Below, piece after piece: positions 47,909-50,021 of a DNA stretch of 64,000 nt (its first letter is position 1; every line of letters begins with the position of its first letter). This stretch comes from Escherichia coli (GTDB lineage Bacteria; Pseudomonadota; Gammaproteobacteria; Enterobacterales; Enterobacteriaceae). A program made the position numbers and the translations under genes. The stretch lies in assembly GCF_024298765.1 (NCBI RefSeq), contig NZ_CP101210.1; one strand, 5' to 3'. The notes below the pieces were generated by a model. The model was given only the letters and a program-made list of their open reading frames with translations, made no database searches and had not been told where the DNA came from.

Positions 47909-48267
47909 AAAGTCCTGTCCAGAAAGAAGTCGGCCTCGCAAAAATGAATAAACCCAGTTTCTCTTGCGCAACAGGTGGAGAAGTCGAATACGCAGTATGT
48001 AAAAAATGAGGCAACAGATTCACTGGGGAGGTCGCGAGGAGGCGCAATTCTACAAAATTGCGCATTTCACTACCAGTCTGGAGTCAGCCCGGATATGAAC
48101 TGCAACTAATGCAAATAAAGAAATTAAGCTGGAAGGCATCACGCAATGAGGAAGATTGCCGGGTGCTGACGGTAAAAAGCAATCGTAAAATCAGCGGCAA
48201 GCCGGAAAGGTTCCGGTGAGGCGCAATGTTGCGGGGGCTTAATCCCTGGTGGCATTGGTTGCTGGAG

Positions 48268-48334
48268 AGAGAAAACCCCCGCACGTTGCAGGTATGCACC
48301 TGACAACATCACGGGGGCTAATCTTGAACCTAGA
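48268..48334 (-). ncRNA. rdl: Rdl-type antisense RNA (type I antitoxin), copy 1, approximate
   Basis: Minus-strand ggtctaggttcaagattagcccccgtgatgttgtcaggtgcatacctgcaacgtgcgggggttttctct, ending in its own terminator; resembles RdlD. Confidence 0.5.
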
Positions 48335-48383
48335 CCACTCAAGAATAGCCGCGAAACGTTGTCATTACAACACAGGCGGCTAT

Positions 48384-48491
48384 ATGACGCTCGCAGAACT
48401 GGGCATGGCCTTCTGGCATGATTTAGCGGCTCCGGTCATAGCTGGCATTCTTGCCAGTCTGATCGTGAACTGGCTGAACAAGCGGAAGTAA
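48384..48491 (+). CDS. ldr: Ldr type I toxin peptide (35 aa), copy 1
   Basis: MTLAELGMAFWHDLAAPVIAGILASLIVNWLNKRK. Confidence 0.85.
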   Translation: MTLAELGMAFWHDLAAPVIAGILASLIVNWLNKRK

Positions 48492-48541
48492 CGTGTCAGA
48501 CGGGCGTCAGGCTGCCGTAATGGCAATTTGCGCCCGGATCA

Positions 48542-48572
48542 GGCCGCAGGGATAAAACTCTGCGGCCTTTTT
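48542..48572 (+). terminator. ldr terminator, copy 1
   Basis: ggccgcagggataaaactctgcggccttttt. Confidence 0.7.
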
Positions 48573-48750
48573 CGTAAGAAAAATGCAACGGTTGCAAGCG
48601 GATAATATTCTGCGGAATGCACAGCACAGAGTGAAGAAGTGACGGATTTCGGAGCTGAAAAACAGTCGTAGAATCAGCGGCAAGCCGGAAAGGTTCCGGT
48701 GAGGCGCAATGTTGCGGGGGCTTAATCCCTGGTGGCATTGGTTGCTGGAG

Positions 48751-48817
48751 AGAGAAAACCCCCGCATATTGCAGGTATGCACCTGACAACATCACGGGGG
48801 CCATTCTTGAACCTACA
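48751..48817 (-). ncRNA. rdl: Rdl-type antisense RNA, copy 2, approximate
   Basis: Same element one period downstream, with SNPs. Confidence 0.45.
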
Positions 48818-48866
48818 CAACTCAAGAATAGCCGCGAAACGTTGTCATTACAACTCAGGCGGCTAT

Positions 48867-48974
48867 ATGACGCTCGCAGAGCTGGGCATGGCCTTCTGGC
48901 ATGATTTAGCGGCTCCGGTCATTGCTGGCATTCTTGCCAGCATGATCGTGAACTGGCTGAATAAGCGGAAGTAA
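48867..48974 (+). CDS. ldr: Ldr type I toxin peptide, copy 2
   Basis: MTLAELGMAFWHDLAAPVIAGILASMIVNWLNKRK. Confidence 0.85.
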   Translation: MTLAELGMAFWHDLAAPVIAGILASMIVNWLNKRK

Positions 48975-49024
48975 CGTGTCAGACGGGCGTCAGGCTGCCG
49001 TAATGGCAATTTGCGCCCGGACCA

Positions 49025-49055
49025 GGCCGCAGGGATAAAACTCTGCGGCCTTTTT
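49025..49055 (+). terminator. ldr terminator, copy 2
   Basis: ggccgcagggataaaactctgcggccttttt. Confidence 0.7.
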
Positions 49056-49233
49056 CGTAAGAAAAATGCAACGGTTGCAAGCGGATAATATTCTGCGGAA
49101 TGCGCAGCACAGAGTGAAGAAGTGATGGATTCCGGAACAGAAAAACAGTCGTAGAATCAGCGGCAAGCCGGAAAGGTTCCGGTGAGGCGCAATGTTGCGG
49201 GGGCTTAATCCCTGGTGGCATTGGTTGCTGGAG

Positions 49234-49300
49234 AGAGAAAACCCCCGCACGTTGCAGGTATGCACCTGACAACACCACGGGGGCCATTCTTGCATCTAGA
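49234..49300 (-). ncRNA. rdl: Rdl-type antisense RNA, copy 3, approximate
   Basis: Same element, third unit. Confidence 0.45.
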
Positions 49301-49349
49301 CCATTCAAGAATAGCCGCGAAACGTTGTCATTACAACTCAGGCGGCTAT

Positions 49350-49457
49350 ATGACGCTCGCAGAGCTGGGCATGGCCTTCTGGCATGATTTAGCGGCTCCG
49401 GTCATTGCTGGCATTCTTGCCAGCATGATCGTGAACTGGCTGAATAAGCGGAAGTAA
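49350..49457 (+). CDS. ldr: Ldr type I toxin peptide, copy 3
   Basis: Identical peptide to copy 2. Confidence 0.85.
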   Translation: MTLAELGMAFWHDLAAPVIAGILASMIVNWLNKRK

Positions 49458-49507
49458 CGTGTCAGACGGGCGTCAGGCTGCCGTAATGGCAAGTTGCGCC
49501 CGGATCA

Positions 49508-49538
49508 GGCCGCAGGGATAAAACTCTGCGGCCTTTTT
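49508..49538 (+). terminator. ldr terminator, copy 3
   Basis: ggccgcagggataaaactctgcggccttttt. Confidence 0.7.
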
Positions 49539-49716
49539 CGTAAGAAAAATGCAACGGTTGCAAGCGGATAATATTCTGCGGAATGCGCAGCACAGAGTGA
49601 AGACGTGACGGATTCCGGAGCAGAAAAACAGTCGTAGAATCAGCGGCAAGCCGGAAAGGTTCCGGTGAGGCGCAATGTTGCGGGGGCTTAATCCCTGGTG
49701 GCATTGTTTGCTGGAG

Positions 49717-49783
49717 AGAGAAAACCCCCGCACGTTGCAGGTATGCACCTGACAACACCACGGGGGCCATTCTTGAACCCAAA
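49717..49783 (-). ncRNA. rdl: Rdl-type antisense RNA, copy 4, approximate
   Basis: Same element, fourth unit. Confidence 0.45.
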
Positions 49784-49832
49784 CAACTCAAGAATAGCCG
49801 CGAAACGTTGTCATTACAACTCAGGCGGCTAT

Positions 49833-49940
49833 ATGACGCTCGCAGAGCTGGGCATGGCCTTCTGGCATGATTTAGCGGCTCCGGTCATTGCTGGCATTCT
49901 TGCCAGCATGATCGTGAACTGGCTGAACAAGCGGAAGTAA
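49833..49940 (+). CDS. ldr: Ldr type I toxin peptide, copy 4
   Basis: Identical peptide to copy 2. Confidence 0.85.
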   Translation: MTLAELGMAFWHDLAAPVIAGILASMIVNWLNKRK

Positions 49941-49990
49941 CGTGTCATGCGGGCGTCAGGCTGCCGTAATGGCAATTTGCGCCCGGATCA

Positions 49991-50021
49991 GGCCGCAGGG
50001 GTGAAACTCTGCGGCCTTTTT
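49991..50021. terminator. Bidirectional terminator between ldr copy 4 and bcsG
   Basis: ggccgcaggggtgaaactctgcggccttttt, 6 nt from the bcsG stop on the other strand. Confidence 0.65.

Follow-up and report, generated by a model that had tools for sequence, protein, structure and literature searches.

A four-copy tandem array of the LDR-D-type ldr/rdl toxin-antitoxin module between yhjV and bcsG in Escherichia coli: one allele of a common variable locus

Within the 64,000-nucleotide stretch of Escherichia coli DNA analyzed here (the window; contig NZ_CP101210.1 of assembly GCF_024298765.1), four head-to-tail units of the ldr/rdl type I toxin-antitoxin module lie between the genes yhjV and bcsG. 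Tandem Repeats Finder reports them as one array at 48175-50024, with a period of 483, 3.8 copies, 96% matches and 0 indels, and an independent seed-and-extend repeat search recovered four in-register copies at spacings of 483/483/483. An earlier note on this DNA, made from the sequence alone, had described four units of about 483 bp between these two genes. The array and its period are borne out; the extent given, 48170-50020, is corrected to 48175-50024, and the units number 3.8 rather than four full ones. The fourth ends after its own terminator, without the 82-nt spacer, and abuts the stop codon of bcsG. Mean column identity across the four aligned units is 94%, and pairwise identity is 95.3-97.5%, with differences at 10-19 of 401 nt. 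The array, its units and its flanks are as follows.

48175-50024, plus strand: whole LDR-D-type tandem array, 3.8 x 483 bp (Tandem Repeats Finder, unit alignment)
48175-48657, plus strand: unit 1, comprising leader, rdl, ldr, terminator and spacer (repeat search, alignment)
48658-49140, plus strand: unit 2 (repeat search, alignment)
49141-49623, plus strand: unit 3 (repeat search, alignment)
49624-50024, plus strand: unit 4, no spacer (Tandem Repeats Finder, alignment)
46637-47908, minus strand: yhjV, left flank (PGAP annotation of an identical record)
50027-51706, minus strand: bcsG, right flank (list of open reading frames, PGAP annotation of an identical record)

Each unit carries a toxin gene on the plus strand and a gene for an antisense RNA on the opposite strand, and these eight genes were located by open reading frame (ORF), by annotated coding sequence (CDS) and by family match.

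48384-48491, plus strand: ldr copy 1, 35-residue toxin with L26, WP_000170738.1, peptide MTLAELGMAFWHDLAAPVIAGILASLIVNWLNKRK (ORF, PGAP CDS, Pfam PF13940)
48867-48974, plus strand: ldr copy 2, M26, WP_001295224.1 (ORF, PGAP CDS)
49350-49457, plus strand: ldr copy 3, M26 (ORF, PGAP CDS)
49833-49940, plus strand: ldr copy 4, M26 (ORF, PGAP CDS)
48270-48335, minus strand: rdl copy 1, 66 nt, complementary to the ldr leader (Rfam rdlD RF01813, 90.4 bits; fold -31.7 kcal/mol)
48753-48818, minus strand: rdl copy 2 (RF01813, 79.7 bits; a CG>UA change keeps the stem pairs)
49236-49301, minus strand: rdl copy 3 (RF01813, 81.8 bits)
49719-49784, minus strand: rdl copy 4 (RF01813, 84.6 bits)

All four 35-codon ldr ORFs are intact. 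The peptide covers residues 1-35 of the 35 in the Pfam family Ldr_toxin (PF13940; E 6.2e-26), while an NCBIfam scan of both peptide variants assigned no family. Between LdrD of K-12, MTFAELGMAFWHDLAAPVIAGILASMIVNWLNKRK, and the window peptides there are 1-2 residue differences. In K-12, LdrD is toxic and RdlD counteracts its toxicity (PMC4147584); by analogy, the window variants would be expected to be toxic when overproduced and to be relieved by Rdl. The four antisense matches are full-length, lie far above the RF01813 gathering score of 50 bits, and are placed 49-114 nt upstream of each ldr ATG, in the 5' leader and clear of both the ribosome-binding site and the ORF; their length agrees with the ~60-66 nt typical of Rdl. 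The Rdl variants share one long predicted hairpin (-30.1 to -31.7 kcal/mol) that leaves 11 nt at the start of the 5' tail unpaired. Differences within the stem preserve pairing, with A-U becoming G-U at the stem base, and G-C/U-G becoming G-U/U-A in unit 2. Between any two window Rdl sequences 4-6 of 66 positions differ, 2-4 of them within Rdl nt 1-20, and the K-12 Rdl is identical to none of the four. The description of the toxins and antisense segments in the earlier note, including L26 in copy 1, M26 in copies 2-4 and several differing Rdl positions, holds in full.

The same array is present in other records. With window positions 47700-50500 as megablast query and 5,426 complete E. coli genomes as target, strain 104 (chicken, China; NZ_CP029164.1) gave a 100% match, and about 61 records were at least 99% identical across the whole query, array included. 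In the record of strain 104, PGAP annotates the yhjV-bcsG interval with four CDS named "type I toxin-antitoxin system toxin Ldr family protein", whose positions are those of the window ORFs. The chromosomal position is that of LDR-D, with the same flanks as those around ldrD in K-12, and the period of 483 over 3.8 copies agrees with the LDR unit, a direct repeat of ~450-500 bp that is often in tandem. We can say with high confidence that four tandem copies of the chromosomal LDR-D-type ldr/rdl module are genuinely present here, in the usual yhjV-bcsG place of the module, and that they represent one allele of a common array of 1-5 copies. The feature is real and was correctly interpreted, and it is also ordinary and already known: the exact array stands in RefSeq with all four toxin genes annotated.

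The 82-nt spacer exists only where two units adjoin and can therefore be used as a probe for copy number. The first spacer, 48576-48657, was searched against the same 5,426 genomes and is present in 3,293 of them (61%), at 6,784 places in total, with 1-4 spacers per positive genome (median 2). These numbers correspond to two to five units, three being the typical multi-copy state. The genome of the window has three spacers, as expected with four units, and none of the 30 spacer matches listed came from a one-copy record (K-12 included). Two systematic samples were also taken down the ranking of all matching records, giving 118 chromosomes that were classed by match span and annotated Ldr gene count, with individual loci opened as a check. 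One copy was assigned to 46/118 genomes, two copies to 11/118, three to 40/118, four to 18/118 and five to 2/118; copy number was unclear in 1/118. Some arrays appeared longer where the match stopped short of bcsG, and most of these proved to be ordinary three-copy arrays split by the match-joining rule.

About 15% of complete E. coli genomes thus have a four-copy array, and five-copy arrays exist too. K-12 and O157:H7 each have one copy at yhjV-bcsG, and the single K-12 copy named in the earlier note is thereby confirmed. A four-copy array is ordinary, not rare; multi-copy arrays are the majority state (61%) and the single copy of K-12 belongs to the minority (~39%). The comparison of E. coli genomes that the earlier note had suggested therefore returned 1-5 copies at this locus, and it divides the claim of a fourfold amplification: four copies against one in K-12 is correct, the implied rarity fails with 61% of genomes multi-copy, and the sense of amplification misleads. 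The statement in the same note that the other three K-12 copies lie at a separate locus is also right, and a review places them there in tandem (PMC4147584). Ldr counts of 2-10 among E. coli, Shigella and Salmonella genomes, with lineage-specific duplications and losses inferred, were reported by Fozo et al. 2010 (PMC2887945); in the open-access literature we found no paper tabulating copy number specifically at yhjV-bcsG.

Tandem repeats of 483 bp are difficult for short-read assemblers, and for the other LDR locus one paper suspected an assembly error where the number of ldr copies differed (PMC7232551). The four units could on such grounds be put down to repeat mis-assembly that inflated a locus of one or two copies. 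The units are separable, however, differing at 10-19 of 401 positions, and an artefact would sooner collapse copies than create diverged ones. The array is found unchanged in the finished genome of strain 104 and at 99% identity or more in the records counted above, and four-copy arrays made of other unit variants occur in ~15% of complete genomes, from many laboratories. Mis-assembly is accordingly a very improbable explanation, and the view that the array is no obvious assembly artefact is sustained.

The age of the units can be judged from an alignment of 43 unit cores (401 nt), which were extracted from the window and from 13 further strains. Within each sampled multi-copy array, the most similar pair of units has 94.8-98.0% identity. 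For 41 of the 41 units in multi-copy arrays the closest relative lies in another strain, never in the same array. Unit 1 of the window has its counterparts in unit 1 of P19_598 (98.5% identity) and unit 1 of ETEC1701 (98.3%), and each window unit is 97.3-98.5% identical to some unit of another strain. Since the nearest relatives are in other strains, the paralogues are old and predate the divergence of these lineages.

The presence of one copy in K-12 and O157 could be taken to suggest that a single ldrD was recently amplified under selection in this strain. Such an origin has very little to recommend it, because the window units are mutually only 95.3-97.5% identical while each is closer to the unit of another strain, and because most E. 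coli genomes have more than one copy. Judged from these alignments, the window array is not a recent amplification and its paralogues are old and common to several lineages; the statement in the earlier note that it is not a recent exact duplication agrees with the divergence of the units. To speak of "amplification" relative to K-12 is misleading, given a standing polymorphism of 1-5 copies in which the single copy of K-12 may equally be a contraction. Copy number must presumably change by gain or loss of whole units, most simply through unequal recombination.

The order of unit types also varies between strains, being R7, R1, R4, R9 in EC45 and SJ3 and R7, R4, R1 in MARGA_3. Differing unit order suggests shuffling, and would imply rearrangement or gene conversion inside the array, beyond gain and loss at its ends.

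Beyond the toxin and antisense genes, each unit contains further elements that may control their expression.

48541-48568 (with T run to 48575), plus strand: terminator-like hairpin of unit 1, 11-pair stem with 8 G-C, then TTTTT
49024-49051, 49507-49534 and 49990-50017 (with T run to 49058, 49541 and 50024), plus strand: the same hairpin in units 2, 3 and 4
48576-48657, and also 49059-49140 and 49542-49623, plus strand: inter-unit spacer, 82 nt, found only where units adjoin (alignment)
48226-48303, recurring at 48709, 49192 and 49675, plus strand: conserved 25-codon leader ORF MLRGLNPWWHWLLERENPRTLQVCT, a candidate regulatory leader ORF (ORF list)

The four terminator-like hairpins, one per unit as the earlier note had said, lie 3' of the ldr ORFs. 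A candidate -10 element for ldr was identified by eye as TAAAAT in unit 1 and TAGAAT in units 2-4, ~378 nt before the end of the terminator; the ldrD mRNA is reportedly ~370 nt long, which would agree with this distance. A candidate rdl promoter, TTGTAA-17 nt-TATTCT, was found in the same way upstream of each rdl and is near-invariant among the four units. The -35 side of the ldr promoter that follows presumably lies in the inter-unit spacer. Its last ~20 nt (48636-48657, 49119-49140, 49602-49623) form a patch of high diversity, with pi of 0.159 compared with 0.007-0.03 in the remaining spacer. This patch sits just 5' of the -10 box presumed for the ldr gene that follows, at the expected -35 region, and the copies may differ in promoter strength on account of it. 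The 25-codon leader ORF has GAGG 4 nt 5' of its ATG and its stop codon inside the Rdl target; the part of the unit that holds it varies least. A second leader ATG, at 48294, also lies inside the Rdl target and is in frame with ldr, giving a 65-codon ORF that is open in all four window units.

An array of this kind could be real and still consist mostly of decaying relics around one active module. Some copies could be unexpressed, the -35 regions are weak and variable, and no Fst/Ldr module has a known knockout phenotype (PMC7472228). The sequence record speaks the other way. The four window ORFs are intact, as are the Ldr ORFs in 43/43 units from the 14 strains (window and 13 others), which encode only 6 peptide variants; all Rdl genes score far above gathering and their stem changes preserve pairing; and conservation extends to the presumed -10 boxes, the region of the rdl promoter and the terminators. 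Intact ORFs, pairing-preserving Rdl changes and conserved control elements point to purifying selection on every copy, and decay of most copies is unlikely.

Against this background of conservation, one segment of the unit is conspicuously variable.

48304-48338 (unit positions 130-165), recurring in units 2-4, no strand assigned: diversity hot spot in the 5' ~30 nt of Rdl, made up of its unpaired tail and the entry to its stem, and in the ldr leader segment that matches them (43-unit alignment)

Among the 43 units, 14/36 columns of the hot spot are variable compared with 49/368 elsewhere (Fisher p = 3e-4), and the four window units alone give 9/36 compared with 18/368 (p = 2e-4). Mean diversity (pi) is 0.124 in the hot spot; third codon positions of ldr have 0.045, the spacer 0.057 and the 3' stem of Rdl 0.016. 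The 43 units contain 18 distinct Rdl sequences, and none of the 12 multi-copy arrays examined holds an identical pair. Each Rdl is by construction perfectly complementary to its own unit. For the 5' 30 nt of Rdl, predicted duplexes with cognate leaders have energies of -59 to -64 kcal/mol, compared with -37 to -55 kcal/mol for non-cognate leaders. The question raised in the earlier note of whether each Rdl variant pairs with its own leader is answered in part by duplex prediction: cognate pairing is predicted to be the stronger, and non-cognate pairing to be still strong. With such strong predicted non-cognate duplexes, thermodynamics alone does not exclude cross-repression, and discrimination would have to be kinetic.

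It is conceivable, if rather doubtful, that the members of the array are kept functionally distinct by selection for orthogonal pairs, each Rdl preferring its own ldr mRNA. The pattern also fits a simple lack of constraint on the unpaired Rdl tail. Because the numbers are small and recombination was outside the analysis, pair-specific selection is treated here as a hypothesis. Sib RNAs discriminate between cognate ibs mRNAs through variable recognition domains, which would be a precedent, and we know of no experimental test of cognate discrimination for Ldr/Rdl. If orthogonal pairing were true, the array would amount to several toxins under separate control and not to a redundant increase in dosage. 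The variability of the Rdl recognition end, the highest in the unit, yields a testable hypothesis on cross-talk between tandem type I modules, and is one of the useful results of the analysis along with the minority status of the single ldrD of K-12 and the age of the paralogues.

The likely mechanism, and the one with the best support, is that already published. The analysis shows the array with its uninterrupted ORFs, the rdl genes and the predicted folds of their RNAs, the terminators and how copy number is distributed in the population; that the units are transcribed, that Ldr is toxic, that Rdl represses it and that recombination changes the copy number is carried over from work on K-12. 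Each 483-bp unit would be a self-contained module. An ldr mRNA of ~370 nt would begin near the 5' end of the unit and comprise a long 5' leader, the 35-codon ORF and an intrinsic terminator, and the ORF would encode a small hydrophobic membrane toxin. The 66-nt Rdl would be transcribed in the opposite direction from the part of the leader that lies 49-114 nt upstream of the ldr start codon, and would pair with the leader, with RNase III cutting the duplex. A ~21-nt RNase III product of the ldrD-rdlD overlap has been detected in vivo in K-12 (PMC7373196). Pairing would stop translation of the toxin indirectly, probably through the leader ORF or the structure of the leader, as in hok/sok. In K-12, Rdl overlaps ldr in its 5' untranslated region (UTR) and not at its ribosome-binding site, and a hok/sok-like model with a leader ORF (ldrX) has been proposed and is unproven (PMC4147584). 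Over longer times, unequal homologous recombination between units would shift the copy number, the units themselves being old paralogues common to several lineages.

Several points weigh against the interpretation of the region as a genuine array of modules that work in this way. The count of four units is that of the assembled sequence. A scan for consensus sigma-70 promoters gave no site at its threshold in the array, so that the ldr and rdl promoters described above are by-eye inferences. Some of the four ldr/rdl copies could be silent in this strain. The leader-ORF step is a proposal and unproven, and the ORF that starts at the in-frame ATG 48294 is broken in 6/43 units, all from other strains, through ATG-to-ATA changes, stop codons or a 2-nt insertion. 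With its start or frame disrupted in these units, the 65-codon ORF cannot be a required element and was rejected as an obligatory leader ORF.

Other features were noted in the surroundings of the array. In two strains of the comparison, adjacent cellulose genes carry pseudogene annotations, bcsG being truncated in ETEC1701 (NZ_CP122938.1, locus 2145-2918) and bcsE having an internal stop in SK1144 (NZ_AP018784.2, locus 6708-7841); both are unrelated to the ldr array. Elsewhere in the window, gathering-level Rfam matches at 38463-38536 (plus strand), 39889-40022 (plus), 40116-40196 (minus), 42432-42474 (minus) and 7613-7655 (plus) are to a tRNA, RtT RNA, naRNA4 (CssrE) and two ES036 (CssrF), and seem to be the usual small RNA annotations associated with repeats in E. 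coli.

Among known systems, the closest is LDR-D (ldrD/rdlD) of K-12, which shares the yhjV-bcsG locus, the unit architecture and the toxin family. Its single unit is ~96% identical to window unit 1, whereas the window strain has four units. LDR-A/B/C of K-12 (ldrABC/rdlABC), between chaA and kdsA, likewise consists of tandem LDR units of ~500 bp, in which every unit combines a toxin gene with a cis-antisense RNA (PMC4147584), but both its locus and its sequence group are others: the chaA-kdsA type is ~81% identical to the window units. Fozo et al. also set the LdrD group apart from the LdrB group (PMC2887945), and according to a review the three other K-12 copies stand in tandem away from LDR-D (PMC4147584).

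Genome searches placed 27-32 ldr-containing places on plasmids. The 195-kb plasmid p23AR0151A (NZ_CP195449.1), from a clinical E. coli, carries a chromosomal ychO-chaCBA-ldr-kdsA-sirB-prmC-prfA segment with an F-prime-like look, in which a single LdrA/B/C-type module (4173-4280 of the examined locus) is ~81% identical to the window units. A plasmid-native ldr was rejected for this match, the one examined, which looks like a captured chromosomal chaA-kdsA segment.

The hok/sok system, with its mok leader ORF, resembles the logic proposed for ldr in having a long 5' UTR and an antisense RNA aimed at the leader rather than at the toxin ribosome-binding site; its toxin family is unrelated to Ldr, and for ldr translational coupling is only proposed. 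Weak full-length matches to the Rfam sok family RF01794 occur on each ldr leader (48233-48386, 48716-48869, 49199-49352 and 49682-49835, plus strand); they fit a hok/sok-like organization and are no evidence of membership. Membership was rejected, with 26.5-30.4 bits against a gathering score of 59 and a toxin that is Ldr (Hok PF01848 was not searched separately). A strong sok match of 124 bits at 26405-26556 (plus strand) is presumably hokA/sokA, a further type I locus in the window, and next to it a match to the cspA thermoregulator 5' UTR (501 bits) lies at 26839-27266 (minus strand).

The ibs/sib and zor/orz systems are also chromosomal type I modules with tandem duplication and strain-dependent copy number (PMC2887945; PMC11264685). 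They differ in their toxins and geometry, since Sib spans the whole ORF and Orz is divergent and partly complementary. Tandem duplication and copy number that varies with strain are textbook properties of LDR and other chromosomal type I loci, and the array has little discovery value in this respect. In its toxin family, the family and position of its antisense RNA, its LDR unit and its locus, the array has every feature that defines the Ldr/Rdl family at the level of sequence.

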